Position numbers and translations under genes: made by a program. Below, piece by piece: positions 2 through 59,143 of a DNA stretch of 64,000 nt (its first letter is position 1; every line of letters starts with the position of its first letter). This DNA comes from Microthrixaceae bacterium (GTDB taxonomy: Bacteria; Actinomycetota; Acidimicrobiia; Acidimicrobiales; Microtrichaceae). The notes under the pieces are model-generated. The model saw only the letters and a list, made by a program, of their open reading frames with translations, had not been told where the DNA came from and made no database searches. The DNA lies in contig JAPXRJ010000001.1 in NCBI GenBank assembly GCA_033813615.1, forward strand, positions 8,515-72,514, given 5' to 3'.

Positions 2-1174
2 GCCGATGGCGACGGAGACGGGGGCGTCGAGGTCCTGGCCGACGTGCCGGCCAAGTCGCTCGAGGAGGACGCTCCGCTCTACGACCGTCCCAGGCAGGAG
101 CCGGCGGATCTGGCCGCACGTCGGGCGGACTCGGCCAACGCGCTGCCGGCACCCGCCGACGTCGCTGCGGACCTGCTGGAGCTGCTGGCCGACACGTCGT
201 GGGTGTGGTCCCAGTACGACCACCAGCTGTTCCTCAACACCGTCATCGGTCCGGGTGGAGATGCTGCGGTGCTCCGCCTGAAGCACCCCACGACCGGCGT
301 CGACACCGGACGCGGGCTCGCGCTCACGACCGACGGCAACCACCTGTGGTGCGCGGTGGACCCGAAGCTCGGCTCCACGATGACCATCTGTGAGTCGGTG
401 ATGAACTTGGCCGTCGTCGGCGCCCGGCCGGTCGCGATGGTGAACTGCATGAACTTCGGGAACCCCGAGCACCCCGAGGTCATGTGGCAGCTGTCGGAGT
501 CGGTCGACGGCCTGTCCGACGCCCTGCGCGCGTTCGACGTCCCCTGCATCGGCGGCAACGTCAGCCTCTACAACGAGAGCCGGGGCGCCGACATCGACCC
601 GACGCCCATCGTCGGCGTGCTCGGCGTGCTCGACCGCCTCGACGCGGTGCCGCCCCGCCCCACGGTGGTCGACGGCGGGCGGTTGATCCTGGTCGGTGAC
701 ACCGTGCGCGAGCTGTCCGGATCCGAGTGGGCCGCCCGGCGCGGCCACCGTGGCCGCGGCGAGCTGCCGGCGGTCGACCTCGACGCGGTGTCGGGGGTTG
801 CGGGGGTGGTGCGCGAGCTGGTGTCGGCGCAGCTGGTCCAGGGCGCGCACGACGTGTCGGGCGGCGGGTTGGGCGTTGCGCTCGCCGAGATGGCGGTCGC
901 CTCCGGCGTCGGGCTGAACGTGGCCCGTCTCGCGGATCACGTCGACCTGTTCTCCGAGTCGGTCGGCCGGGCCGTGCTGTGCGTGGCGCCCGACCAGGTC
1001 CGGGCGGTGCTCGACGTGCTCGAGGCCCACGACGTGGCCCACTCGCGCATCGGAGCAGCGTCCGGTGACCGGATCGTGGTCAAGGACCTCCTCGACGTCG
1101 CCCTGGACGAGGTCACCACCGCGTGGCGGGATCGGATCCCGAACGCGATCGGCTCGGGGACGACCCAGGGCTGA
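2..1174 (+). CDS. purL: Phosphoribosylformylglycinamidine synthase PurL, 3' part (starts before window)
   Basis: Motifs WVWSQYDH, NCMNFGNPE, GGNVSLYNE, HDVSGGG; frame is open from base 2. Confidence 0.95.
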   Translation, partial: ADGDGDGGVEVLADVPAKSLEEDAPLYDRPRQEPADLAARRADSANALPAPADVAADLLELLADTSWVWSQYDHQLFLNTVIGPGGDAAVLRLKHPTTGVDTGRGLALTTDGNHLWCAVDPKLGSTMTICESVMNLAVVGARPVAMVNCMNFGNPEHPEVMWQLSESVDGLSDALRAFDVPCIGGNVSLYNESRGADIDPTPIVGVLGVLDRLDAVPPRPTVVDGGRLILVGDTVRELSGSEWAARRGHRGRGELPAVDLDAVSGVAGVVRELVSAQLVQGAHDVSGGGLGVALAEMAVASGVGLNVARLADHVDLFSESVGRAVLCVAPDQVRAVLDVLEAHDVAHSRIGAASGDRIVVKDLLDVALDEVTTAWRDRIPNAIGSGTTQG

Positions 1175-5676: not shown

Positions 5677-7851
5677 ATGCGTGGAGTGCTCAGAGCGGGT
5701 TGGCCCGCGGTGTTGCTGGTGGCCTTCGGAGTCGTCGTGCTCACCGGTTGCCTGGGGCCCGACGAGCCGGATCCGACCGGAACCGCGCCGTTCGGCCACC
5801 TCGACGCGGTGGTGGCGGTCCCCGGCGGGTTCCGTGCCGTCGGCTGGGTCGTCGACCCCGACACCGCCGCCCCGATCGAGGTGACGGTCTCCTCCGAGCA
5901 GCGCACGGTCAAGGGCGTCGCCGACGGCGACAGGCCCGACCTGGTGTTCGCCACCCGCGGTCTCGGCACCCGTCACGGCTTCGACGTCCGCTTCGGGGGG
6001 CTCGGCCCCGGACCGCACCAGGTGTGCGTGTGGGCCGACAACGTCGGTCGCGGCAGCCGGGCACGGGCGTTGGGTTGCACGTACGTCACTGTTCCGGAGC
6101 CCAGCCCGTTCGGCAGCCTGGAGCTCGTCGCTCCGGCCGGTGACCGGCGGGTGCACCTCTCCGGTTGGGCGATCGATCCGGACACCTCGGCACCGATCGG
6201 TGTGGGCGTCCTGCTCGACGGCAAGCCCGTCCTGAACGCGGTGGCCTCGCAGGCTCGGCCGGATGTGGCCGGTCTCGGGTTCGGCACGGCGCACGGGTTC
6301 TCCTTCGACGTCCCGGCGGAGCCGGGTCCGCACCAGCTGTGCGTGATCGCCGAGAACGTGGGGCCGGGCGCGCACTCGTGGCTGGGCTGTCGTGTCGTCG
6401 CCGTGCCGGAGCCTCGGCCCGACCGTCGGCCGGTCGGTTCGGTGACCGCGGTGGAGCCGCAGCCGGGCGCCGGCGCGGTCGCCGTCAGAGGCACCGCGAG
6501 CGATCCCGACACCACCGCTGCGCTGCAGGTGCGGATCGCCGTCGACGGCGTGACGACCACGGTCTCGACGAGCGGCGGAAGCTACTCGACGGTGATCTCG
6601 GGTCTGTCGGCCGGAACCCATCGCGTCTGCGTCACCGCCGTCGACGCTCCGTACCGCGGAGCCGGTGCGGTCATCACCGGGGACCGATCGTGGCCGTGCG
6701 GGACCGTGATCCTCGGCGACGTGTCGGTGGGGAGCTCCGGGGCCCCCGGCGGCCCGACGGTGCCGGTCGGACCGTCGGCCGCGAGCCCGATCGCCACCGT
6801 GGACCGCGACGCCGGCATCAGCGTGCAGCTCAACGACGGGTCGGTGCTGTGGCTGTTCGGCGACTCGAGCCAGCTCGACTGGGCAGGTCGGCTCCAGTAC
6901 TTCGTCAACAACACCGCGGCGTGGGCGCCCGCCGGCAGCCCGACCGTCACCCGCGACGCCGTCCAGGGCGGCGCGCCGGTGCAGTTCGTGACGCCGGCCG
7001 GGTCGTCGTGGACGTGTCCGGCCGACCACCCGAACAAGGCCATGTGGCCGGCGTCGGCGGTTCGCACCGACGGCAACGACGGCGCCGGAGGTCGGGACCT
7101 GGTGACCGCGTTCTTCTCCAACGTGTGCCTGGGCGACGAGTTCCTCGAGATCGTCGCCAAGGGCATCTCGGTCGTGCAGTGGACCTACGACCCGGCCAAC
7201 AAGCCGAACGGCACGCCGATCCAGGGCACGGTGGTCAACCACGAGCTGTGGCCCACCCAGGAGTACGGCCAGGCGGCCACCACCCGGACCGTGTCGGGGA
7301 CCACCTACGTCTACGGCTACAAGTGCGTCACTCCGCCCCAGGGCACACCTCTGTGGCCGAACGTGCTCGGCCCCTGCCACGTCGGTCGTGTCCCGGTCGG
7401 CTCCGTGACGACGGCGTCCTCGTGGCGCTACTGGAACGGCTCGGGCTGGGTGACCGACCCGGCGCAGGCCGCTGCGGTCATCCCCGGTCCGGCTCCGGGC
7501 GTGGCCGACACCCGCGCTCCCGTCGCAGGCGCCACGGTGTCCTTCGACGCCACCCACGGCGTGTACGTGATGGGCTACAGCCCGTGGCCCGGCTTCAGCG
7601 ACCGGGTCTTCGTCCGCGTCGCCACCGCGCCGGAAGGCCCGTGGAGCGACGTCGTCGAGGTCGCGCTCCCCGGATGCGACGACCGCGTCGGCTCGTCGGA
7701 GTTCTACTGCTACGCCGGCACGGTCCAACCGGCGCTGAGCGAGCCGGGCCTGCTCGGCGTGGGCTACTACGACCAGTTGGTCGCGGTCGGGCCGAACAGA
7801 GGTCAGTACCTGACGGTGAAGGTGCCGTTCCACGTCGTGATCACGGGTTGA
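5677..7851 (+). CDS. Lipoprotein with three GW..DPD/RPD/HGF repeat modules and a DUF4185-like C-terminal domain
   Basis: Lipobox LTGC; repeats G-x-x-D...GW-x-x-DPD...RPD...HGF...VC; DAGISV..DG..LWLFGDS motif. Confidence 0.7.
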   Translation: MRGVLRAGWPAVLLVAFGVVVLTGCLGPDEPDPTGTAPFGHLDAVVAVPGGFRAVGWVVDPDTAAPIEVTVSSEQRTVKGVADGDRPDLVFATRGLGTRHGFDVRFGGLGPGPHQVCVWADNVGRGSRARALGCTYVTVPEPSPFGSLELVAPAGDRRVHLSGWAIDPDTSAPIGVGVLLDGKPVLNAVASQARPDVAGLGFGTAHGFSFDVPAEPGPHQLCVIAENVGPGAHSWLGCRVVAVPEPRPDRRPVGSVTAVEPQPGAGAVAVRGTASDPDTTAALQVRIAVDGVTTTVSTSGGSYSTVISGLSAGTHRVCVTAVDAPYRGAGAVITGDRSWPCGTVILGDVSVGSSGAPGGPTVPVGPSAASPIATVDRDAGISVQLNDGSVLWLFGDSSQLDWAGRLQYFVNNTAAWAPAGSPTVTRDAVQGGAPVQFVTPAGSSWTCPADHPNKAMWPASAVRTDGNDGAGGRDLVTAFFSNVCLGDEFLEIVAKGISVVQWTYDPANKPNGTPIQGTVVNHELWPTQEYGQAATTRTVSGTTYVYGYKCVTPPQGTPLWPNVLGPCHVGRVPVGSVTTASSWRYWNGSGWVTDPAQAAAVIPGPAPGVADTRAPVAGATVSFDATHGVYVMGYSPWPGFSDRVFVRVATAPEGPWSDVVEVALPGCDDRVGSSEFYCYAGTVQPALSEPGLLGVGYYDQLVAVGPNRGQYLTVKVPFHVVITG

Positions 7852-46377: not shown

Positions 46378-47091
46378 TCAGGGCACGTCGATGGTGACCT
46401 TGGCGTTCGCGCTGTCTTCCTGCTCGCCCGGGAGCGACGGCGGGCAGCCGTCGCCGATCCCTGTGACGCCGGTGATCTCGGCCACGTAGGTGCCGCTGGC
46501 CAGGTCGGCCGGCAGCGTGAACCGGAACGAGCGGTGCAGCGGGCCGGTCGCAGCCGGTATCGGAGCAGCGTCCTCGGGCCGCAGCACGGCGACGGCACAG
46601 CCGACCTCGACCCCGTTGGCCGGCACCAGCGACGATTCGGTGGCCGCGTCGCCGTCGATCGAAGACCAGCAGGCCGATCCCACCGCGACCGGGAGCTGAC
46701 CGGCGCCTTCGGGCTGCACGCGCACGTGGACGCAGGCGAGCGTGGCATCGCTCGATGGGACCGAGCCGTCGTCGATGTCCACCGACAGGGCACCGTCCTC
46801 GACCAGGGCGGTCGTGACGAGCCCGTCGGTCACCTGCGCCACTGTGGGCGTCGTGGTCGTGGTCGTGGTCGTCGTGGTGTCCGGCGCCACGGGGTCCGCA
46901 TCGGTCGTCCCGCCTCCGCGGGCGGCGAGCACACCGATGCCGATCGCCAGCACGGCGACCGCGGCGACGCCGGTGGTGGCGAGCGCACGACGGGTCCGGT
47001 CGCGACGGCGGAGCCGCTCACCTCGCGCCACGACGGCGTCGTAGCGCTGCTCGGGACGAGACGGCGGTGGGAAGTGCTCGGTGCTCGGCAT
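46378..47091 (-). CDS. Single-pass membrane protein, putative anti-sigma factor
   Basis: Coupled to ECF sigma; RG.RLRRR + TM + Thr linker + Cys-containing extracellular domain. Confidence 0.65.
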   Translation of the reverse strand: MPSTEHFPPPSRPEQRYDAVVARGERLRRRDRTRRALATTGVAAVAVLAIGIGVLAARGGGTTDADPVAPDTTTTTTTTTTPTVAQVTDGLVTTALVEDGALSVDIDDGSVPSSDATLACVHVRVQPEGAGQLPVAVGSACWSSIDGDAATESSLVPANGVEVGCAVAVLRPEDAAPIPAATGPLHRSFRFTLPADLASGTYVAEITGVTGIGDGCPPSLPGEQEDSANAKVTIDVP

Positions 47092-47606
47092 CAGTCGGCC
47101 CTCGCCGCGATCTCGTCGAGCTCGCCCAAGTGGTCGCGGAGGCGTCCGCTCGCTCGGGAGAGGTGGGTCTTGACCGAGCCGGTGGACATGCCGAGCGACG
47201 CGGCGGTGTCCTCTTCGCTCAGGTCGATCAGGTAGCGCATCACGACGACCTCCTGCTGGCGGTGCGACAGGCGGTGCACGGCCCGGGCGAGGTCGACCCG
47301 GAGCGCGGCGTCGTCGTCGGGGCGGTCCGCGGCTGCGGTCTCGGCGAGCGGCGCCGGGTCCCGTCGCCGCTCCTTTCGCACGTGGTCGATCGCCAGGTTG
47401 CCGACGACCCGCAGGAGCCAGGCGTCGGGGTTCGGGTGGGACCGCACCTGGTGCCAGCGGGCGAAGGCACGAGCGAGGCTCTCCGCAGCGACGTCCTCGG
47501 CCAGGGTGGCGTTCCCGAGCAACCGGCGAGCCGTGCGCAGAGCGCGGTCGTGCATGCGCTCGTAGAACGCACGGAACTCCTCCTCACGCACCGGATCCGG
47601 CAACAC
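47091..47606 (-). CDS. ECF sigma-70 factor (SigE-like)
   Basis: AEDVAAE, AWLLRV..NLAID, LS.RQ.EVVVMRY, GSVKTHLSR; AGGAGG RBS. Confidence 0.92.
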   Translation of the reverse strand: MLPDPVREEEFRAFYERMHDRALRTARRLLGNATLAEDVAAESLARAFARWHQVRSHPNPDAWLLRVVGNLAIDHVRKERRRDPAPLAETAAADRPDDDAALRVDLARAVHRLSHRQQEVVVMRYLIDLSEEDTAASLGMSTGSVKTHLSRASGRLRDHLGELDEIAARAD

Positions 47607-47616
47607 ACCCTCCTGC

Positions 47617-47640
47617 AACGTGTGAACGTACCGAACGGTT
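47617..47640 (-). promoter_or_regulatory. Putative ECF-type autoregulatory promoter
   Basis: AACC-16 nt-CGTT just upstream of the sigma RBS. Confidence 0.55.
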
Positions 47641-47764
47641 GACACCTTGGTGGGGAACCACGCCGATGCAGGGAGAACGACCCAGCCGGGAGGATGACCC
47701 AGCAGGACAGGACGACCCGGGGGATCGGACTCCGTTCCGGATCGGGCCGATTAGCCTCATTGGG

Positions 47765-48349
47765 GTGAGCGCAGTGGATGCCCTCTTCTGGGTCGTCTGC
47801 CTGGTGCTGGTGGTGGCGGGCTCTTCGAAGCTGGTCGCGCCGGAGCAGGTGGCTTCGACGCTGGTCGCCCTCGGTGGACCTCGTCGCTCGTCGCGGTCGG
47901 CTTCGTCGGTTTCCGGCGTCCTGGCGGCCAGGGTCGTCGGCGCGTTCGAGGTGGTGCTCGGCATCGCCGGCCTGGCCGTCGGCGGCACGGTGATCGCGCT
48001 CGGCGTGTCGGCGGTGTACGTCGGGTTCGCTGTCGTCGTCGTCGTGGCCCGTCGGCGGGGTCTGAGCGGCTGCGGTTGCTTCGGCGCCACGAGCGCGCCG
48101 CCGAGCTGGGTCCATGTGGCGGTCAACGTCGGATCGGCCCTCGTCGCCGCGGTGGCCGCGGCGACGAGCGGCGGACCGGCTCCGGCGGCGGACGGCCTCG
48201 GCGCCGTCTCGTCGAGCACCGCGATGGCGGTGGCGGCCTTGGTGTTGCTGGCCACGGCGCTGGTGGTCGCGCTCGACACCGTCGTGGCCGACGTCGTCGA
48301 GGCGACCAGGGCGCTGCGGGACCAGGACCGGGGTGTGGAGACAGCGTGA
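47765..48349 (+). CDS. MauE/DoxX-family membrane protein
   Basis: AG.SKL, E..LG, GCGCFG; multiple TM segments. Confidence 0.85.
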   Translation: MSAVDALFWVVCLVLVVAGSSKLVAPEQVASTLVALGGPRRSSRSASSVSGVLAARVVGAFEVVLGIAGLAVGGTVIALGVSAVYVGFAVVVVVARRRGLSGCGCFGATSAPPSWVHVAVNVGSALVAAVAAATSGGPAPAADGLGAVSSSTAMAVAALVLLATALVVALDTVVADVVEATRALRDQDRGVETA

Positions 48350-50304
48350 CCGCCACCGAGGTTCCCCCGACGAAGGACCCCATGCGCGTCCTCGACCGCG
48401 TCGGCACCGGTGCCCCCGACGCCGATGCGCAAGTTGTCGGCGCTGCGCTGGGCGCGACCGGCGTGGAGCGTGCGCCCCGTCGGCGTCGCAACCTGGCCGA
48501 GCGGATCGCGTCGTTCATGGAGCGCCGAGTCGACCGGCGCGGCGTGCTGCGCAAGGGAGCGATGGCCGGCACCGCGCTGGCGGTCGCTCCGGCGACGTTC
48601 GCGCTGCGACCAGGGAGCGCGTATGCGGCGGTGTGCGCACGCAACGCGCTCTGCAACGACGGCTACACCGAGTTCTGCTGCACGATCACCGGCGCCAACC
48701 AGTGCCCACCCGGCACGGCGCTCGGCGGGTGGTGGAAGGTCGACGGGTCCAACTTCTGCGGAGGCGGCCCTCGCTACTACATGGACTGCAACGCCGGCTG
48801 CGGCGGCTGCGGCTGCGGTGCCAACGGGATCTGCCCCGGCGGCTGTTCGGGCACCCCGTGCGGTTGCGCCAACGGTGACTGCAACAACCGCAAGGCCGGC
48901 TGCACCGGGTTCCGCTACGGCCAGTGCAACCAGGGCATCGCCTGCTTGGGCCCGATCGTCTGCCGCGTCGTCACCTGCACCGAGCCGTGGCGCCTCGACG
49001 GGACCTGCACCACCGCGGCGCGGACCGACAACGCGACCCGCTACCACTCGCGTCCGTGCCTCGAGGTCGATGCCATGGGCAACGTCGACTCGCTCACCGT
49101 GGTGCCGGGGGGTGTGCGCGTGACCGGATGGGCCATCGACCCGACCGCCGTCGGCGTGCCGATCAGCGTCAACGTCTACGACTGCCTGCGCCCGCAGGCC
49201 ACGGTCGTGGCGAACGTGTGGCGCGACGACATCGCCCGGAGCTTCCCCGGCCAGGGCCCAGCACACGGCTTCGACGTCTTCTACCGCTTGTGCCCCGGCG
49301 ACCGGCTGGTCTCGGTCGCCGCCAACGACACCTCCGGCAGGGGCTCGAACTGGATCTTCCACCGGATGGCGCGGATCGACCCGAACCCCAGCGGTCACTT
49401 CGACCAGGTGGATGGCGGCGTCGGCACCATCCGTGCCACCGGGTTCGTCATCGGCGCCGACGGCGGCCAGCTCCCGGTGGACATCTTCGAGGACGGCCGG
49501 CTGGTCACCCGCGTCGTCGCCGGTCTGAGTCGACCCGACATCGCCGCGGCCTATCCGCACCTCCACGGTCACTACGGCTTCGACGTCAGCTGGGCTGCGG
49601 GGCCGGGGTCCCACCACGTCTGCGTGGTCGCCCGGGGCCCCGGTGGTCGCGACGTCGACCTCGGCTGTCGATGGGCGGCCGTCGCCGCCGACCCTCAGGG
49701 CGTGGTCGAATCGGTCACGTCGCCTGGCTCCGGCTCGGTCCGCGTCGTCGGGTGGGCAACGGACGCGGACGTCGCGGCGCCGATCCGAGTCAGCGTCACC
49801 GTCGACGGAGCCGACCGGGGGACCTACCTGGCCGATCGCACCCGAGGCGACCAGTGGAACGGCCGAGGGTTCGACGTGACGTTGACCGGGATCGCTCCCG
49901 GTGCCCGATCGGTCTGCGTGACCGCGCTCAACGCCGATCGCGGGCGTGACGTGGTGCTGGGCTGCAGCACCACCGGCGTCGCCGCCGTCCAGGCCGGCCA
50001 GGTCACGGCGTTGGAGGCGACCGGCGACGGCGTGCGCGTGGCCACGACGGAGGTCACCCGGACCGACGACTCCACCGCCTCGGTCCGCGTGCTCGTCGAC
50101 GGCCAGTTCCGTGCGTCGCTGCGGGCCGGTCCGGGCGGCATCGACGAGTCGCTCCCGTTGACGCCTGGTGAGCACGAGGTGGTGGTGACCACCACCTCCG
50201 ACGGCCCGCGGACCATCCCGATCGTCCTCGCCAGTGCGGCGATCTCGGTCCCGGACCCGGCCGCATCCGACGCGTCGCCGGCATCGGGGAAGGCAACCGG
50301 ATGA
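48346..50304 (+). CDS. Tat-exported Cys-rich protein (MauA/TTQ small-subunit-like domain) fused to GW..DP/HGF repeats
   Basis: DRRGVL Tat motif, AYA cleavage site; 22 Cys in 48634-49059; CPPGT..GGWW and YYMDC. Confidence 0.75.
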   Translation: MTATEVPPTKDPMRVLDRVGTGAPDADAQVVGAALGATGVERAPRRRRNLAERIASFMERRVDRRGVLRKGAMAGTALAVAPATFALRPGSAYAAVCARNALCNDGYTEFCCTITGANQCPPGTALGGWWKVDGSNFCGGGPRYYMDCNAGCGGCGCGANGICPGGCSGTPCGCANGDCNNRKAGCTGFRYGQCNQGIACLGPIVCRVVTCTEPWRLDGTCTTAARTDNATRYHSRPCLEVDAMGNVDSLTVVPGGVRVTGWAIDPTAVGVPISVNVYDCLRPQATVVANVWRDDIARSFPGQGPAHGFDVFYRLCPGDRLVSVAANDTSGRGSNWIFHRMARIDPNPSGHFDQVDGGVGTIRATGFVIGADGGQLPVDIFEDGRLVTRVVAGLSRPDIAAAYPHLHGHYGFDVSWAAGPGSHHVCVVARGPGGRDVDLGCRWAAVAADPQGVVESVTSPGSGSVRVVGWATDADVAAPIRVSVTVDGADRGTYLADRTRGDQWNGRGFDVTLTGIAPGARSVCVTALNADRGRDVVLGCSTTGVAAVQAGQVTALEATGDGVRVATTEVTRTDDSTASVRVLVDGQFRASLRAGPGGIDESLPLTPGEHEVVVTTTSDGPRTIPIVLASAAISVPDPAASDASPASGKATG

Positions 50305-51203
50305 CCGTCGCGGTGGTGCTCCTCGGTGTGGTCGTCGCGCTGCTCGCGGTCCTGGTGATCAGCCTGCTGCGCAGCCACGCGGAGATCCTCCGCGCGCTGC
50401 ACGACCTGGGCGTCGACCTCGATCCCGATCAGCCGGCGGACGCGGCGCGAGCCGCCCGCGCCGCCCGCGCCGCCCAGGGCGACCTGCTCACCTCGGAAGG
50501 TGCCGCGGCGGAGGCCGGCCGGTCGGCACCGTCGTCGAGCACGGCAGGGTTCACGACCGCGGACGGCGTGGCCGAGCCCGGCGACCTGCTCGGCATGGGT
50601 GCCTTCGACCTGGTGGGCGCCGACCCGTCGGGTGACGCGGTGGCGATCGGCGTGCTGGGCGGATCGCACCGCACGCTCCTCGCGTTCCTGACGACGGGCT
50701 GCACCACCTGCCACGGGTTCTGGTCGGCGTTCGCCGAGGGCGTCGAGCTTCCGGCTCCCGACATCCGCCTCGTCGTCGTGACCCAGGGCGAGGAAGCCGA
50801 ATCGCCGGCGCGGGTGGCCGAGCTCGCGCCGAGCGACATCGACGTGGTCATGTCGAGCGACGCCTGGGAGGACTACGGCGTGCCGGTCGCCCCGTACTTC
50901 GCGCTCGTCGAGCGCGACCAGGTCGTGGGCGAAGGCGCGGCGGCCACGTGGACCCAGGTCGTCGACCTGCTCGGGCGGTCGCTCGCGGACGCCGGAAGGT
51001 CGCTCTCGACCCCCGGGTCCGTCGCTGCGTCGCGGCGAGCGTTCCTGACGGGCCGGGACCGCGCCGATCGCATCGACGCCGAGCTCGCGGCCGCCGGCAT
51101 CGTCCCCGGCGACCCCCGCCTGTACGGGCCGGTGGCGGAGCCCGACGATCCGCAGGGCTCCGACGACCCGGCGCGCTCCGAAGGAACGGGGCAGCGCTCG
51201 TGA
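50301..51203 (+). CDS. MauD-like membrane-anchored thioredoxin-fold protein
   Basis: N-terminal TM followed by LLRSHAEIL; FLTTGCTTC; V...PYF cis-Pro loop. Confidence 0.78.
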   Translation: MTVAVVLLGVVVALLAVLVISLLRSHAEILRALHDLGVDLDPDQPADAARAARAARAAQGDLLTSEGAAAEAGRSAPSSSTAGFTTADGVAEPGDLLGMGAFDLVGADPSGDAVAIGVLGGSHRTLLAFLTTGCTTCHGFWSAFAEGVELPAPDIRLVVVTQGEEAESPARVAELAPSDIDVVMSSDAWEDYGVPVAPYFALVERDQVVGEGAAATWTQVVDLLGRSLADAGRSLSTPGSVAASRRAFLTGRDRADRIDAELAAAGIVPGDPRLYGPVAEPDDPQGSDDPARSEGTGQRS

Positions 51204-51709
51204 CGGTGGCTCGGGTGGCTGCGGCGCGCACGCTTCGGGCCCATGGACTGAAGGTGCTGGTGCCGGCCGGGTGGGACGGCTCGATCCGCCGCGCCGCCGG
51301 CGACGCCTCCGACACCGACCGGGACGACGTCGGCGCACTCGGCACGACCAACCCGGTCCTGCACGTGGCGAGCTTCCCGCTCCCTGCGGTGCGCGGCGAC
51401 TACGGCGGCGGCGCGGTCGAGCGCATGCGGCCGAGCGACGTGCTGGTCGCGCTCGTCGAGTTCGATCCCGAGGCGGTGGCCACGCCGCTGTTCTCGGCCG
51501 CCGGCCTCCGACGACCGCTTCGCACGTCGGACTTCTCCCGCTCGACCATGCACCGACCGCTCGTCGGCGCGAGCGGGCACCAGCAGTTCTTCCACACAGG
51601 GGGGCGGGCGTTCGCCCTGTACGTGGCGCTCGGAGCGCATCGACTCCGCTCCCGTTCGGTTCCGCGCGTGGACCGGGTGCTGTCCACCCTGGTGATCGAT
51701 CCTCGATGA
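51200..51709 (+). CDS. Hypothetical protein coupled to the Mau-like operon
   Basis: GTGA overlap upstream and ATGA overlap downstream; P.GWDG, LHVASF.LP..RGDYG. Confidence 0.7.
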   Translation: MTVARVAAARTLRAHGLKVLVPAGWDGSIRRAAGDASDTDRDDVGALGTTNPVLHVASFPLPAVRGDYGGGAVERMRPSDVLVALVEFDPEAVATPLFSAAGLRRPLRTSDFSRSTMHRPLVGASGHQQFFHTGGRAFALYVALGAHRLRSRSVPRVDRVLSTLVIDPR

Positions 51710-53832
51710 ACCCGCCGGTTGGCGGGACGGACGCTCCCGACGTGGTCCACACCGTGCTGGTGGTGTCGAAGTCGCACCTCGACGTCGGCTTCACCGGCCT
51801 GGCGGGCGAGGTCCGCGAGCGCTGGCTGCGCTCGCACCTGCCGACCGCCGTGGCGACGGCCAGAGAGCTGCGCGACGCAGGCGATGGGCCGACGCTGCGC
51901 TGGACGACCGGCTCGTGGATCCTCAACGAGGCGCTCGAGGAACCGGATCGGGAGTTGCGGCTGCTGGTGGAGCACGCGATCGAGGACGGCGACCTGGCAT
52001 GGCACGCCATGCCCTTCACCACCCACACCGAGCTGGCCGACCGGTCGCTCCTGGCCCACGGCCTGTCTATCTCGTCGCGGCTGGACCAGTGGTTCGAGCG
52101 GCGGACCCGGGCCGCCAAGCTGACCGACGTGCCGGGCCACACCCGCTCGCTCGTGTCGCTGCTCGCTGACTCGGGCGTCGACCTGCTGCACATCGGGATC
52201 AACCCCGCAGCGGCGGCGCCCGACGTGCCGCCGCTGTTCCGCTGGAACGATCCGGCGGGCGGTGAGCCGCCGCCCGAGGTGACCGTCGTGCACCAGCCCG
52301 GCGGCTACGGCTCGCTGCAGCGACTGGGCGACACCGGCGTCGTCGTCGACGTGTGGATGACCGGCGACAACGACGGACCGCCGTCGGCAGAGGATGTGCG
52401 CAAGCGCTGGACGCAGCTGGTCGCGCAGTTCCCGCAGGCCCGCGTCGTCGCCGCCACCTTCGACGACGTGGCCGACGTGGTGCGCCCGGTGGCGAACGGA
52501 CTCCCGGTCGTCACCTCCGAGATCGGCGACACGTGGATCCACGGCGTGGCGTCGGACCCCGCCAAGACCGCCGCGTTCCGGGAGACCTGTCGTCGTCGTC
52601 GCGGCTGGATCGACGGCGGCCGCGTCGCCGAGGACGACCCGGCGCTGTGGCGGGCGTCGACCGAGCTGCTGCTGGTGGCGGAGCACACCTGGGGCCTGGA
52701 TCAGAAGGCCGCGTGGCCCGACACCGAGCACTGGTCCGAGGTGGAGCTGGCCTCCGTGCGACCCCGGCCATCCACGCGTCGCTTCGAGTGGAGCTGGAGC
52801 GAGCAGCGGACCTACCTCGACCGCTTCCGGGAGGTGCTCGAGCGCGCCGGCCGCCACGACCTCGCCGAGGACGCCCGGGCCGGGATGGCGCTGTGCGGCT
52901 CGGCGCCCGTCGACGTCGAGGGGCTCGACGCGCTCGGCCGTCCCGCTGACGGCGGACCGATCCCGGTGCGCCTCGGCCCGCTGGAGCTGTCGATCGACCC
53001 GCACGACGGAGCGCTCGTCGGCGTGGTTCTGAGCGACGCGCCCGGTGGACCGAGGGAGCTCGTCGGCGGGGGTCGATCCCTCGGCCGGCTCGGTCACCGC
53101 ACGTTCGACGCGGCGGACTACGAGCGGTGGTTCTCGACCTACAACGGCGCAACCGAGGCGGAGGACCTGGACTGGGCCCGCTGGGACAACACGAAGCCGG
53201 GTCTGGAGCACACCGCCGCACGATCGGCCTGGTGCGCGCCGGACCTGGTGGGCGTGTGGGCGGGTCGGCGACCGGCATCGACCGCAGCAGTCGCCGCCGT
53301 CGACCCCTCGGCCGGACCGGACGCCGGCGAGATCGGCGCGGAGGTGCTGCTGCTGGAGCTGTCGTTCCCCGAGGAGGTCCGCTCGTTCAGCGCCGCGCCG
53401 CACTGGGTCGTGGTCGGCTACGAGCTCGTCGACGGCCGCCCCGACGAGCTGTCGTGCTGGTTGCAGTGGGTCGCCAAGCCGGCCGCACGGTGGCCGGAGT
53501 CGACCTGGTGGTCGTTCGCTCCCACGGTGTCGGATCCCGCTGGCTGGACGATGAGCAAGCTCGGCGAGGTCATCTCGCCGCTCGACGTGGTGGCCCGCGG
53601 GGCGCGCAACCTGCACGCGGTCGAGTCGCTGCAGCACCCCGACGGCCTGCGCCTCTCGCTGCCCGACGCGCCGCTCGTCGCGCCGGGGGCACCGGCGCTG
53701 CTGCGCTTCGACGACCGCCTCCCCGACCTGGCGGGCGGCTGGCACGTCTGCCTGTACGACAACGTGTGGGGCACGAACTTCCCGATGTGGTGTCCGGGTG
53801 ACGCCCGCTTCCGAGTCACGCTGGCCTGGTGA
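51706..53832 (+). CDS. DUF5054 / GH38-like glycoside hydrolase
   Basis: KSHLDVGFT, WHAMPFTTHTE, TDVPGHT, EIGDTWIHG, EHTWG, NVWGTNFPMW. Confidence 0.8.
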   Translation: MNPPVGGTDAPDVVHTVLVVSKSHLDVGFTGLAGEVRERWLRSHLPTAVATARELRDAGDGPTLRWTTGSWILNEALEEPDRELRLLVEHAIEDGDLAWHAMPFTTHTELADRSLLAHGLSISSRLDQWFERRTRAAKLTDVPGHTRSLVSLLADSGVDLLHIGINPAAAAPDVPPLFRWNDPAGGEPPPEVTVVHQPGGYGSLQRLGDTGVVVDVWMTGDNDGPPSAEDVRKRWTQLVAQFPQARVVAATFDDVADVVRPVANGLPVVTSEIGDTWIHGVASDPAKTAAFRETCRRRRGWIDGGRVAEDDPALWRASTELLLVAEHTWGLDQKAAWPDTEHWSEVELASVRPRPSTRRFEWSWSEQRTYLDRFREVLERAGRHDLAEDARAGMALCGSAPVDVEGLDALGRPADGGPIPVRLGPLELSIDPHDGALVGVVLSDAPGGPRELVGGGRSLGRLGHRTFDAADYERWFSTYNGATEAEDLDWARWDNTKPGLEHTAARSAWCAPDLVGVWAGRRPASTAAVAAVDPSAGPDAGEIGAEVLLLELSFPEEVRSFSAAPHWVVVGYELVDGRPDELSCWLQWVAKPAARWPESTWWSFAPTVSDPAGWTMSKLGEVISPLDVVARGARNLHAVESLQHPDGLRLSLPDAPLVAPGAPALLRFDDRLPDLAGGWHVCLYDNVWGTNFPMWCPGDARFRVTLAW

Positions 53833-55854: not shown

Positions 55855-56382
55855 GTGAGTCGACGAGGCAACAGGGGCCGTCCCGCGGCTCGGCCCGCGC
55901 ACCGGATCCGACGAGCGCGTGCCGGGAGCGCCGGACAGTCCGGCGTCACGTTGATCGAGGTCCTCGTGGGCATCGTCGTGATGGCGCCGCTGACGCTGGC
56001 CTCCGTGAGCGGCCTGCTGCTCCAGATGAAGGTCTCGACCGGGACGCAGGACGCGCAGCGCCTCGAGGTGTCGTTGACCGAAGCCGGCGAGGACCTCATG
56101 GCGGTCCCGTACGTGTCCTGCGGCGATCCGGGGCAGTACCAGGAGCTGCTCGACGGGTGGAGCGCCGCGCTCGACCCGAAGCTGGTGTCGACGTCGCAGG
56201 CGCCCGCCGCGAAGGTCGTCGCCGTCGAGTACTGGAACAGCGCCAAGGGCGTCTTCCTGCCCGAGTGCGTGGGCGACGACGGAGCGCAGCGCGTGACGAT
56301 GGTGACCGTGGCCGCCGACCGCAGCGCTCGCGGCACGGTCGTCAAGCGCAACCCGGCGACGCGTGCCGCGGGGACCGGATGA
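55855..56382 (+). CDS. Type IV pilin-like protein (PilV-like)
   Basis: Class III signal QSG/VTLIEVLV. Confidence 0.8.
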   Translation: MSRRGNRGRPAARPAHRIRRARAGSAGQSGVTLIEVLVGIVVMAPLTLASVSGLLLQMKVSTGTQDAQRLEVSLTEAGEDLMAVPYVSCGDPGQYQELLDGWSAALDPKLVSTSQAPAAKVVAVEYWNSAKGVFLPECVGDDGAQRVTMVTVAADRSARGTVVKRNPATRAAGTG

Positions 56383-58142
56383 GCAGCGCGGTGCGCCGTT
56401 GGTCGCGACGTCGGTTGGCGCGCCGCGGCCAGTCGGGCATGACCCTCCTGGAGACGCTGCTCGCGCTGATGATGAGCGCGCTGATGGTGCTGCCGGTGTT
56501 CGGTTGGACGTCGCTGGCCATGCGTGAGCAGCGTGACGTGTCGCAGCGGAACCTGTCGGGAGCATCGCTCGGCGTGCTGCGCACGGTGTTCACCCGCGAC
56601 GTCGTCAACTCGGACCGGGCATGGGTCGACGGCGAGCACCTCGAGGACTGCGTGCTGAGCACCAAGGGCGCCCGTCCCCTCGTCGCCCTCGTGTCCGGCA
56701 ACCGCCACACCGTGTACGCCACGACGCCTGATCACGGCGAGGGCGACTCGCAGCTCGTGAGAGCGCAGTGCGCCTCGTCCGGTGGGCCGGCAGCGGTCGA
56801 GCGGGAGCTGGTGGGCGACGTCATCGATGCCGGGACCGATGCCACCTGTGCGACGGTGTCGCAGCTCGCGGAGCTCGAGGCGGCGCGGTCGCCGAAGTTC
56901 GAGAAGGACGCAGGGTTCGAGGCCCGGTTGGCCGACCAGGAGTGCTCGCGCGTCACGCTGCGCGTGACGACCGGCCAGCTGGATCAGATCGCATTGACCG
57001 CCACGCGCCGATCGTCGCCGAGCAGTACCGTCGACGCCGACGCCCCGATCGCCGTGGTCGCGGCGGACCCCACGACGGGTCTCGTTCCGTTGAAGGTCGC
57101 CTTCGACGGGTCGTCGTCGGTGGACCCGCGGGGCGAGGAGATCTCCTACAAGTGGGACTTCGGCGACGGGACCGGCGGCGAGGGTCCGTCGGTCGGCCAC
57201 GGGTACTCGAAGATCGGGACCTACACCGCGACGCTGACGGTGACGACGACGAAGACGGGCCGCAGCGCGACGGCCGCGGTGCTGATCACCGTCGGGAGCA
57301 ACGCCCCGGTCGCGGCGATCGCCGCACCTGCGAGCGGCACCACGGTGCACAGGGGTCAGAAGGTGTCGTTCTCCTCGAAGGGCTCCGGCGATCCGGCCGA
57401 CGAGCCGTACGGCGCCAAGCCGGTGTCGTACCTGTGGGACTTCGGTGACGGGACCGGCTCCGCCGAGGCCAACCCCACCAAGGTGTACTCGGCGCTCAGC
57501 GCGGCGTCCGGCTACGACGTGAAGTTGACCGTCACCGACGACACCGGACTGACCGCCTCGACGTCGATCAAGGTGGTCGTGGCCAACCGCATCCCGACGG
57601 TGGCCGTCACGGCCAACCCGTCGAGCGGCACCGCACCGCTGTCGGTGACGTTCACCGGAACCGTCGTCGACGAGCCCGACATGGCGAGCCCTCCCAAGCT
57701 GAAGTACGCGTGGGACTTCGGCAACGGCACCACGTCGAGCGCGGCGGCGCCGGGAGCGGTGACCTACTCGACCGCCGGCACCTACACCGCCAAGCTCACC
57801 GTCACCGACGACCAGGGCGAGTCGGCCTCCGGCTCCCAGACGGTCACCGTGACGGAGAAGCCGCTGGCCGCGCCGGTCAACCTCCGCAAGACCAAGAGCG
57901 GATCCGAGAAGGGCCTGCGGTACATCGACATGGCATGGGACCGACGTGACGGCGCCACCCGCTACGAGGTCGAGCTGGACTGCGTGTCCTGCAGCGAGGT
58001 CGCCACGAACCAGGCGTCGGGGACCACGCTGCGGATCAGCGGGCTGTCGAAGGGCGCCAAGCAGTACGACGCTCGGGTCCGGGCGCAGAGCCCCTCGGGC
58101 ACGTGGGGACCGTGGTCCGAGCCGCTGAGGGTGAAGTCGTGA
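56379..58142 (+). CDS. Type IV pilin-like protein (PilW-like) fused to three PKD domains and an FN3-like domain
   Basis: QSG/MTLLETLL; three WDFG(D/N)G...LTVT repeats; C-terminal VRA...GPWS. Confidence 0.85.
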   Translation: MSSAVRRWSRRRLARRGQSGMTLLETLLALMMSALMVLPVFGWTSLAMREQRDVSQRNLSGASLGVLRTVFTRDVVNSDRAWVDGEHLEDCVLSTKGARPLVALVSGNRHTVYATTPDHGEGDSQLVRAQCASSGGPAAVERELVGDVIDAGTDATCATVSQLAELEAARSPKFEKDAGFEARLADQECSRVTLRVTTGQLDQIALTATRRSSPSSTVDADAPIAVVAADPTTGLVPLKVAFDGSSSVDPRGEEISYKWDFGDGTGGEGPSVGHGYSKIGTYTATLTVTTTKTGRSATAAVLITVGSNAPVAAIAAPASGTTVHRGQKVSFSSKGSGDPADEPYGAKPVSYLWDFGDGTGSAEANPTKVYSALSAASGYDVKLTVTDDTGLTASTSIKVVVANRIPTVAVTANPSSGTAPLSVTFTGTVVDEPDMASPPKLKYAWDFGNGTTSSAAAPGAVTYSTAGTYTAKLTVTDDQGESASGSQTVTVTEKPLAAPVNLRKTKSGSEKGLRYIDMAWDRRDGATRYEVELDCVSCSEVATNQASGTTLRISGLSKGAKQYDARVRAQSPSGTWGPWSEPLRVKS

Positions 58143-59143
58143 GCCGGCTCCATCCGCACCAGCGTCCCGGCGACGGCCGGTCCGACGAGCGCGCCGCGGG
58201 GCGGTTCGTCGCGAGGTTGCGCCGACGGATCGCCCGAGGTCGCGGCGAGCAGGGCGCCGTCGTGATGGCCGGCATCGCCATGTGGATGCTGGTCGGCGGC
58301 GTCGCGATGACGACGTTGATGTCGATGAGCCTGTCTGTCGCGCAGCAGGCCAGCATGCAGGCCAAGGCGTCGGAGGCGGCCCGTGAGATCGACGGGGCGC
58401 TGCAGGTCGGGGTCGTCCAGATCCAGATCGACGACAGCGGCACCAAGGGCGTCCCGATCGGCAAGGCCGAGGGCGGCTGCGCCTCCGGCCTCGGCCCCGG
58501 CGGCGCGGTGCTCGCCGTCGACGGCGACGGCGACGCTCCCGTCGTCGTCACCTCGAACTGCTTCGGCTCGACGGATCCGAGGCAGGTGCACCGCGTGGTG
58601 CTCACCGCGGCGGTGAAGGGCGCGTCGGTGACGGGCTCCGCAGCGCTGCAGGTCGTGGCCGCGCCCGGCGGCGGCAACGACGTCGTGGTCGACAGCTGGA
58701 CCGTCGGCGACCCGACGCTCGTCACGACCACCACGAGCACCTCCACGACGTCCACGACCACCTCCCCCTCGACGACGGTTCCGGTGACGACGGTCCCGAC
58801 GACCACCACGACGGTCCCGACCACGACCACCTCTACGACGACCTCGACGACCACCACGGTCAAGCCGACGACGACCACCACGACGACGGCGGACGGGGTC
58901 ACGTGGGTGGTCAAGGTGCAGTCGGACTGGGGCATCGGGTACTGCGCGGACGTGACGGTGTCGAACCCCACGCCCAAGCCGATCGACTGGAAGATCAGCT
59001 TCCCGATCGAGGGCCGGCCGTACACGGTGTGGAACGCCGTCTGGTCCCAGAGCGGCACCACGATGACGGCATCGGGCGCCGACTGGAACAGGACCGTGCA
59101 GCCCGGCGGCACCCAGCCCTGGGGATTCTGCGCCAACCGCTGA
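58139..59143 (+). CDS. PilX-like pilin with Thr-rich linker and C-terminal CBM2
   Basis: EQG/AVVM without Glu5; poly-Thr; SDWG.GYCADVTV.N...W...WNA...WN...GFC. Confidence 0.8.
   Translation: MSRLHPHQRPGDGRSDERAAGRFVARLRRRIARGRGEQGAVVMAGIAMWMLVGGVAMTTLMSMSLSVAQQASMQAKASEAAREIDGALQVGVVQIQIDDSGTKGVPIGKAEGGCASGLGPGGAVLAVDGDGDAPVVVTSNCFGSTDPRQVHRVVLTAAVKGASVTGSAALQVVAAPGGGNDVVVDSWTVGDPTLVTTTTSTSTTSTTTSPSTTVPVTTVPTTTTTVPTTTTSTTTSTTTTVKPTTTTTTTADGVTWVVKVQSDWGIGYCADVTVSNPTPKPIDWKISFPIEGRPYTVWNAVWSQSGTTMTASGADWNRTVQPGGTQPWGFCANR

Follow-up and report, generated by a model that had tools for sequence, protein, structure and literature searches.

The 64,000-nucleotide stretch of a Microthrixaceae bacterium analysed here (contig JAPXRJ010000001.1, positions 8,515 to 72,514; hereafter the window) contains a compact operon of four genes, which encode a MauE-family membrane protein, a cysteine-rich substrate of twin-arginine translocation (Tat), a membrane-anchored thioredoxin-fold protein and a protein of 169 amino acids (aa) that lacks a signal peptide (Table 1). 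An earlier reading made from the sequence alone (the original prediction) described a mau-like operon with a MauA-like domain, lacking the beta-propeller subunit MauB and the dihaem protein MauG of methylamine dehydrogenase (MADH). Its 4-nucleotide stop/start overlaps are borne out, as successive open reading frames (ORFs) overlap by GTGA, ATGA and GTGA, and each of the motifs that it quoted (GCGCFG, LAERIASFMERRVDRRGVL...AYA, NQCPPGTALGGWW, YYMDCN, FRYGQC and FLTTGCTTC) is found in the sequence. We found no description of the operon, the head domain of the Cys-rich protein, its partner or a selenocysteine-containing MauF in the literature within our reach, which leaves out most subscription journals. 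The novelty, according to the models described below, would lie in a client not described before and a predicted additional subunit within a folding cassette of the mau type.

Table 1. Genes and features of the operon (positions in the window)
Feature	Position	Strand	Basis
Membrane protein of the MauE family (CGCFG motif), a likely DsbB-like generator of disulfides	47765..48349 (194 aa)	+	PF07291 match; profile match to MauE
Cys-rich protein, whole gene	48346-50304 (652 aa)	+	ORF
Leader of the Cys-rich protein for twin-arginine (Tat) export, with AYA at its end	48346..48627	+	sequence; conserved RR
Head domain of 146 aa with 22 Cys (likely 11 disulfides), remotely MauA/AauA-like	48628..49065	+	AF2 model; fold searches; conservation
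W35-W36 ... D53, positions matching MADH Trp57 and Asp76	48730..48786	+	hand alignment; putative mapping
Stalk of four beta-rich repeats of ~100 aa	49075..50265	+	BLASTP among repeats
Membrane-anchored CxxC (CTTC) thioredoxin-fold protein, MauD-like	50301..51203 (300 aa)	+	TIGR02661; profile match to MauD
Signal-less protein of 169 aa, probable PsbP/Mog1-like fold, predicted head-binding partner	51200..51709	+	AF2 model; fold searches; complex prediction; co-occurrence; covariation

The Cys-rich protein combines a leader, a head and a stalk. The RR pair of the leader is invariant in 120 relatives, the RR-x-hydrophobic motif occurs in 236 of the 241 relatives with sufficient upstream sequence, and the leader of the head family aligns with that of MauA (probability 47%); tatC was found in the source genome, which is 89.9% complete, and the true start of the protein may lie further downstream. 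All 22 Cys fall between residues 97 and 238 (48634-49059), in the N-terminal mature region as had been proposed. In a numbering where head residue 1 is precursor residue 95, the invariant head residues are N24, W35, W36, R49, D53, F95-R96-Y97-G98 and R113, and the AlphaFold2 (AF2) model has a predicted local distance difference test score (pLDDT) of 92.7. The stalk, first counted as 3-4 repeats, has four, three of them clearly alike (neighbouring pairs at BLASTP E 4e-9 to 7e-12) and the fourth weaker (E 3e-4 to repeat 2).

Relatives of the protein carry other tails. LGFP, SLH, CWB2, DUF4214, FG-GAP, tectonin and ricin modules occur among the 94 longer representatives scanned, about half of these tails have no Pfam match, and the heads of some relatives have no tail. 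Because the tail modules vary or are absent between relatives, we infer that the head is the constant part of the protein and the tail an exchangeable tether, and the wall-tethering tails lend support to the surface display suggested originally. Stand-alone head proteins without a stalk are found at L085-L091 (family f6) and would lend themselves to expression and structural study; TGA codons inside head matches of this family were considered as selenocysteine and rejected, since they are ordinary ends of stalk-less heads (7 of 7 checked). At the protein level, two relatives (P0280 and P0325) appear to be MauE-head fusions, both putative. The stalk repeats of our protein recur in two further envelope-type proteins of the source genome, encoded at ~5680-7851 (+) of the window and at G000:C36:1627-4116; one is a probable lipoprotein, and an extra domain of the other stalk-repeat protein presumably resembles an N-acetylmuramoyl-L-alanine amidase, to judge by its motif.

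The head does not occur alone. It has 427 relatives among representatives at 50% identity, and 590 of the 598 pattern hits among the GTDB matches listed proved genuine (at least 590 genomes), the carriers named in record titles being mostly Acidimicrobiia. One cultured carrier is Salinilacustrithrix flava (locus L078). The 80 best GTDB loci were selected without regard to any gene but the head; by tblastn, 76 of them have the thioredoxin gene, 74 the gene for the 169-aa protein and 65 MauE. Profiles applied to all 158 head-bearing loci, which include a few duplicates and some truncated loci and of which many were chosen since head and partner were both known, find the thioredoxin in 153, the 169-aa partner in 152, MauE in 139 and a MauF relative in 110. 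Gene order differs between loci and the gene set stays together; given the many relatives of the head and the recurrence of its partner genes, the cassette is not a chance arrangement. The MauE and MauD-like helpers named in the original prediction are thus conserved neighbours of the head, as it had anticipated; it missed the MauF relative, which belongs to the system, and, having listed the 169-aa gene as a hypothetical, it missed the predicted binding of this conserved protein to the head. Searches of plasmids with the head and with the MauF relative gave no match.

Co-occurrence of head and 169-aa partner is nearly complete. In a sample of 201 genomes of the class, each was found in 68, both in 67 and neither in 132, and the two single-gene exceptions lie at contig ends; in an overlapping sample of 301 genomes of the phylum, 23 have the head, all with the partner, and 24 have the partner. 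Pfam finds nothing across 68 members of the partner family, of which none has a Tat motif and one has a hydrophobic N-terminus, and an ESM Atlas search with the partner returned Actinomycetota clusters and no usable family. A longer form was seen once among 7,992 candidates, as a MauF-partner join that looks frameshifted, which speaks weakly against real partner fusions. The AF2 model (pLDDT 90.4) matches BT_1490, Tsi3, TplEi, MTC28, LpqN, PsbP and DcrB. Its best match reaches Z 6.9 with a root mean square deviation (rmsd) of 3.8 over 115 residues, and the top five (Z 6.9, 6.8, 6.3, 6.3 and 6.2; 107-115 residues, rmsd 3.4-4.0) all stay under the Z 8 caution line; the best Foldseek E is 0.013. 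We take the top 15 structure matches to share the Mog1/PsbP-like fold, many members of which presumably act as protein-binding caps. The 169-aa protein appears to resemble this group in fold, but is 8-15% identical to its members and has no signal peptide or lipobox; it is a strongly conserved partner and not a variable toxin.

For head and 169-aa protein, the complex prediction scored 0.87, compared with 0.00 for the best of three controls; among solved pairs, 116 of 157 attain the mark for this score, as do 2 of 215 mismatched ones, a calibration that is only roughly valid with our own alignments. The runs share at least 91% of contacts with a partner pLDDT of at least 90, and recall of a known complex is unlikely because neither protein has a close solved relative. 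On the head side, the interface of 127-139 contacts involves D11, W36, F95-R96-Y97-G98-Q99, T137 and residue 132, and on the partner side D67, G69, F98, Q128, F130 and residue 86; the invariant head residues R49, D53 and R113 do not appear in the listed interface. Across 136 paired loci, the top covarying pairs join head residue 132 to partner residues 84 (z 10.4) and 86 (z 9.0), with control pairings peaking at z 6.9, 6.4 and 7.5. Phe at partner position 86 accompanies Ala132 of the head in 36 of 36 cases and Arg132 in 0 of 72. On a concatenated tree covering 121 of the 136 rows, there are 11 and 13 single changes and 15 joint ones, giving 7-9 independent contrasts, about 5-6 of them concordant and none opposite (median p 0.03-0.06); with kinship considered, this covariation appears borderline. 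Overall, we regard physical binding of head and partner as very likely.

A complex of this kind need not outlast export. The 169-aa protein could be a cytoplasmic escort chaperone for the reduced precursor, in which case the mature surface protein would consist of the stapled head without the partner and would serve as an adhesin or a ligand-binding knot. The co-occurrence and complex data would fit equally, the partner family has no signal peptide, and its fold neighbours Tsi3, TplEi, LpqN, PsbP and Mog1 are protein-binding modules. We nonetheless consider such an escort unlikely, if a serious contender, because the prediction gives an extensive interface in which the head is fully folded, and because the size swap between Ala/Phe and Arg/small residues would suit tight packing on a folded surface better than transient escort.

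The likely remote relationship of the head to MauA emerges from structure more than from sequence. The head matched nothing in Pfam, NCBIfam or the sequences of the PDB, the last searched with both the single sequence and an 83-row profile; Pfam returned no match to PF02975, the family of the small subunits of MADH and aromatic amine dehydrogenase (AADH), and the head family profile is not significant against MauA. Leads from the ESM Atlas were thrombospondin-like, all below 0.9, and were set aside as composition effects. Foldseek with the head model, in contrast, placed AADH/MADH small subunits at ranks 1-12, at E 2.7 or worse and a template modelling (TM) score of about 0.3. In a Foldseek-free structure search of 48,161 chains, just three reached Z >= 2; the first two were AADH, with Z 2.8 and rmsd 2.9 over 72 residues, and MADH, with Z 2.6. 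Head model residues 13..119 align to MADH 32..128. With a profile of 116 MauA cores, hhalign aligned 22 columns at a score of 23.4, compared with 13.0 +/- 2.4 (maximum 19.6) for 100 column shuffles. Of the MauA fold proposed originally, a remote resemblance is thus supported, in that these small subunits rank best in structure searches, while the match is weak and no Pfam or PDB sequence match accompanies it; remote homology of the head to MauA seems to us probable.

Further likenesses emerge when the head is aligned by hand to Paracoccus denitrificans MauA, which gives a putative mapping. D11 then corresponds to D32, C17 to C36, C26 to C46, W36 to W57, D53-C54 to D76-C77, C78-x-C80 to C86-x-C88, Q99-C100 to W108-C109 and C112-R113 to C121-T122, so that the head keeps the order DG...C...CPPGT...W...DC...CxC...C-x11-C. 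As in the small subunits encoded by mauFBEDACJG clusters, such as that on plasmid 1 of P. denitrificans PD1222, the Tat leader is similar, the three-strand core is the best structural match, and MauE, MauD and MauF homologues accompany the head. Unlike MauA, however, the head has no Pfam match, contains 22 rather than 12 Cys, carries Gln at the Trp108 position, is fused to wall-binding stalks and has as its predicted partner a probable PsbP-fold protein. Its C18 covaries with C144, in contrast to the MauA pair 38-86. A strand register sum of 87 in the head is suggested by DSSP and by the covariation of D39 with P48 (z 7.1).

The cysteines of the head behave as pairs. Their count is even in 283 of 292 sequences, and they are gained or lost together at 76/91 (r 0.90), 69/73 (r 0.94) and 18/144 (r 0.77), a pattern that, together with Gln at the Trp108 position, fits disulfides rather than tryptophan tryptophylquinone (TTQ) or cysteine tryptophylquinone (CTQ); even counts and paired gain or loss would argue against a free Cys for a CTQ thioether of the type found in quinohaemoprotein amine dehydrogenase (QHNDH) gamma, LodA and GoxA. 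The same residues bear on metal binding. Tat substrates often carry cofactors, and a metallothionein-like, Fe-S (iron-sulphur) or Cu site built on the Cys in the cytoplasm would explain Tat export; H140 and D53 are invariant, and CC, CxC and CxxC motifs occur in the sequence. Given that the operon encodes a DsbB-like oxidase and a thioredoxin, that Cys are gained and lost in distant pairs and that the head folds confidently without ligands in the model, we consider a metal site very improbable.

Of the residues that serve the MADH cofactor, W36 and D53 (the Trp57 and Asp76 positions) are 99% conserved and D11 (the Asp32 position) is Asp in 66%, whereas the Trp108 position holds Gln in 94% and Asn in 5% of 365 rows, in keeping with the replacement of the second-Trp region noted originally, and the Thr122 position is an invariant Arg. 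MauB (PF06433) was found in 0 of the 201 class genomes, where a positive control matched, and MauA (PF02975) above cut-off in 0 of the 301 phylum genomes. MauG (PF03150) was not found in the source genome, to which its search was limited and for which the control responded in 4 of 14. The original prediction, which had seen neither a beta-propeller subunit nor a dihaem MauG in the window, therefore extends to these wider searches, and neither a canonical mauB nor a canonical mauG was found elsewhere in the genome. An ordinary amine dehydrogenase with its large subunit and MauG encoded elsewhere could draw on the MauE, MauD and MauF homologues and on the incompleteness of the genome; these negative searches and the lack of a second Trp largely refute it, and we give it next to no weight.

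A more distinctive cofactor deserves consideration. TTQ formation is reported to require two Trp and MauG (PMC11951088), and canonical TTQ is excluded on that account. For TTQ, the first hydroxylation of Trp is considered autocatalytic, a conserved Asp close by taking part (PMC7876137), which leaves some room for a partial Trp-derived cofactor. Head and partner could thus form a new quinoprotein in which D53 aids hydroxylation of W36 to yield an uncrosslinked or differently crosslinked tryptophylquinone and the PsbP-fold protein replaces the beta-propeller; D11, W36 and Q99, at the Asp32, Trp57 and Trp108 positions, all lie in the predicted interface. In its fullest form, this would place the system beside the TTQ amine dehydrogenases as a sister lineage, with a wall-tethered two-subunit enzyme, a hitchhiking PsbP-fold subunit, a new Trp/Asp cofactor (hydroxy-Trp or an uncrosslinked quinone) and folding by MauE, MauD and a selenocysteine MauF, all without MauG. 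However, every known tryptophylquinone requires a maturase, as stated in the same source (PMC11951088), and the substitutions at the Trp108, Asp32 and Thr122 positions, the even Cys counts that leave none for CTQ and the MauG result argue in the same direction. Among the identified conserved neighbours, for which named families were searched, there is no oxidase, cytochrome or cupredoxin. The quinoprotein branch of the original prediction is accordingly disfavoured, with no second Trp, no spare Cys and no maturase found, and both the new quinoprotein and its elaboration as a sister lineage appear to us improbable. Elsewhere in the source genome, unlinked to the operon, a weak amicyanin-like (cupredoxin) match lies at G000:C330:1621-1953 (E 7e-4).

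The helper genes point to oxidative folding. The first gene is a MauE (PF07291 at E 5.7e-12, scoring 46.5 bits where the cut-off is 27), whose family profile matches P. denitrificans MauE at E 8.6e-15; its CxC is kept in 58 of 59 aligned homologues, and it is the sole MauE found in the source genome. The original prediction had regarded MauE as dedicated to MauA, which is not upheld. According to a preprint (bioRxiv 10.64898/2026.03.05.709764), MauE replaces DsbB in E. coli, for which the CxC is required, and co-occurs with MauA in 10.2% of species only. Because it is a general DsbB-like oxidase so seldom found beside MauA, its presence signals disulfide formation and not MADH. The thioredoxin falls far under the cut-off of the MauD equivalog TIGR02661 (E 0.0065, 15.9 bits against 188.6), and its family profile matches P. 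denitrificans MauD at E 2.9e-10 with the CxxC aligned; as judged from these profiles, it is homologous to MauD. The CGCFG MauE and CxxC thioredoxin resemble the oxidase relays of the MauE-centred folding pathway of the preprint and of the DsbB/DsbA and VKOR systems, but differ from that pathway in forming a dedicated cassette with one client and a MauF relative that probably uses selenocysteine; the client protein is not described in the part of the preprint available (10.64898/2026.03.05.709764). No VKOR was found in the source genome. A DsbB at G000:C4:24706-25862, beside a thioredoxin-like gene, constitutes a separate housekeeping disulfide system.

The MauF relative often sits between the thioredoxin and partner genes. 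In 109 loci, its Cys position is encoded by TGA in 83 and by a Cys codon in 26, with TAA or TAG in none, and two consensus hairpins stand behind the TGA codon in TGA forms only (kinship ignored). Most relatives have TGA and retain the gene within the operon; the Cys forms follow the partner gene, are inverted or are located elsewhere. The TGA form occurs in 32 of 44 SelA-positive and 1 of 16 SelA-negative genomes, as well as in SelA-negative G238, which stands outside this tally. The genes selC-selD-selA-selB adjoin the operon in G425 (L116:5962-10710), and selC, selD, selA and selB, or some of them, adjoin it at L026, L070, L076, L172 and L173. These sequence patterns suggest that the MauF relative is probably a selenoprotein in most relatives. 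In the source genome, no selA, selD or tRNA for selenocysteine (tRNA-Sec) was found, and the MauF-like gene, on another contig and unlinked to the operon (G000:C11:9223-9990; L082:7724-8491), has Cys (TGC) in its STWSPCG motif, which is identical to that of MauF (BLASTP E 7e-8).

Coupling these observations, we lean towards an operon for a Tat-exported 22-Cys head and a co-exported PsbP-fold partner, with the head stapled by MauE and the thioredoxin and the stalk set in the cell wall. Head and 169-aa protein would form a tight 1:1 complex, as predicted by the model with support from covariation. The partner may bind the precursor in the cytoplasm, giving the still-reduced head enough fold for Tat, cross the membrane as a Tat hitchhiker and stay as a second subunit in the place of the beta-propeller MauB. 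Based on homology and the preprint cited above, a relay running from head to thioredoxin to MauE to quinone would form the 11 disulfides, while the MauF relative, here in its Cys form, may feed electrons for reshuffling wrong Cys pairs. The repeat stalk would tether the head-partner pair in the cell wall. Presumably the working site is the patch of invariant residues where the subunits meet or next to it, with W36, F95-Q99 and T137 from the head and D67, G69, F98, Q128 and F130 from the partner, and it may serve for ligand binding or catalysis with no TTQ cofactor. Export of signal-less subunits as Tat hitchhikers is established (PMC4273604, PMC10924467), and, like PaoABC (PMC4273604) and the flavin adenine dinucleotide (FAD) glucose dehydrogenase (PMC6719666) as these sources describe them, the operon pairs a signal-bearing with a signal-less subunit. 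Unlike in those complexes, the passenger here would have a PsbP-like fold, and no cofactor-bearing subunit was identified.

Several points weigh against this interpretation. Binding is a model result and not a measurement, the partner's exit from the cytoplasm and the role of MauF are both inferred, and no substrate or ligand was identified for the predicted complex. Model and covariation are not fully independent, because both use overlapping sequence families. On a thioredoxin-only tree, 3-5 contrasts are supported (p 0.25-0.5); partner residue 84 lies outside the listed interface; interface pairs make up 5 of the top 25 covarying pairs (2.1 expected) and 9 of the top 100 (8.4 expected); and interface residues are not significantly more conserved (p 0.10 for the head, 0.46 for the partner). 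The MauA homology is weak by the Z, rmsd and TM values given above, just 22 profile columns were aligned, and a global MauA alignment is no better than shuffles. Finally, oxidation could also come from the DsbB of the source genome and need not depend on MauE alone.

The surroundings of the operon appear to lie outside the system. A gene of 708 aa (51706-53832; DUF5054, GH38-N-like) overlaps the end of the 169-aa gene by ATGA and was considered as a fifth member, but was rejected because tblastn finds it with the head in just 5 of the 80 best loci. On the other side, a divergent pair (46378-47645, minus strand) encodes a SigE-family extracytoplasmic function (ECF) sigma factor and a membrane-anchored probable anti-sigma factor; it was likewise rejected, since the two genes neighbour the operon in just 7 and 5 of the 80 loci, all in close relatives. 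No sites resembling promoters or terminators were found. Contigs from RNA libraries cover fragments of the operon, but equally of the genes around it, and so are silent on operon expression. Further downstream, at 55855-59143, a pilin-like gene cluster with PKD and cellulose-binding-like domains was noted by eye in the ORF list.

In conclusion, the mauE/mauD/mauF helper set would gain a second dedicated client, found in about one third of the Acidimicrobiia-class genomes sampled, in a cassette that separates disulfide maturation from TTQ synthesis. With natural selenocysteine, Cys and unlinked variants of MauF at hand, the roles of MauF and MauD, about which little is known, become accessible to testing, and the predicted partner offers a reason why a protein that needs extracytoplasmic disulfides would use Tat. 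Together, head and partner are a well-defined pair of subunits for structural and chemical study; should the homology to MauA hold, their complex would show what the scaffold of a TTQ enzyme does without TTQ.

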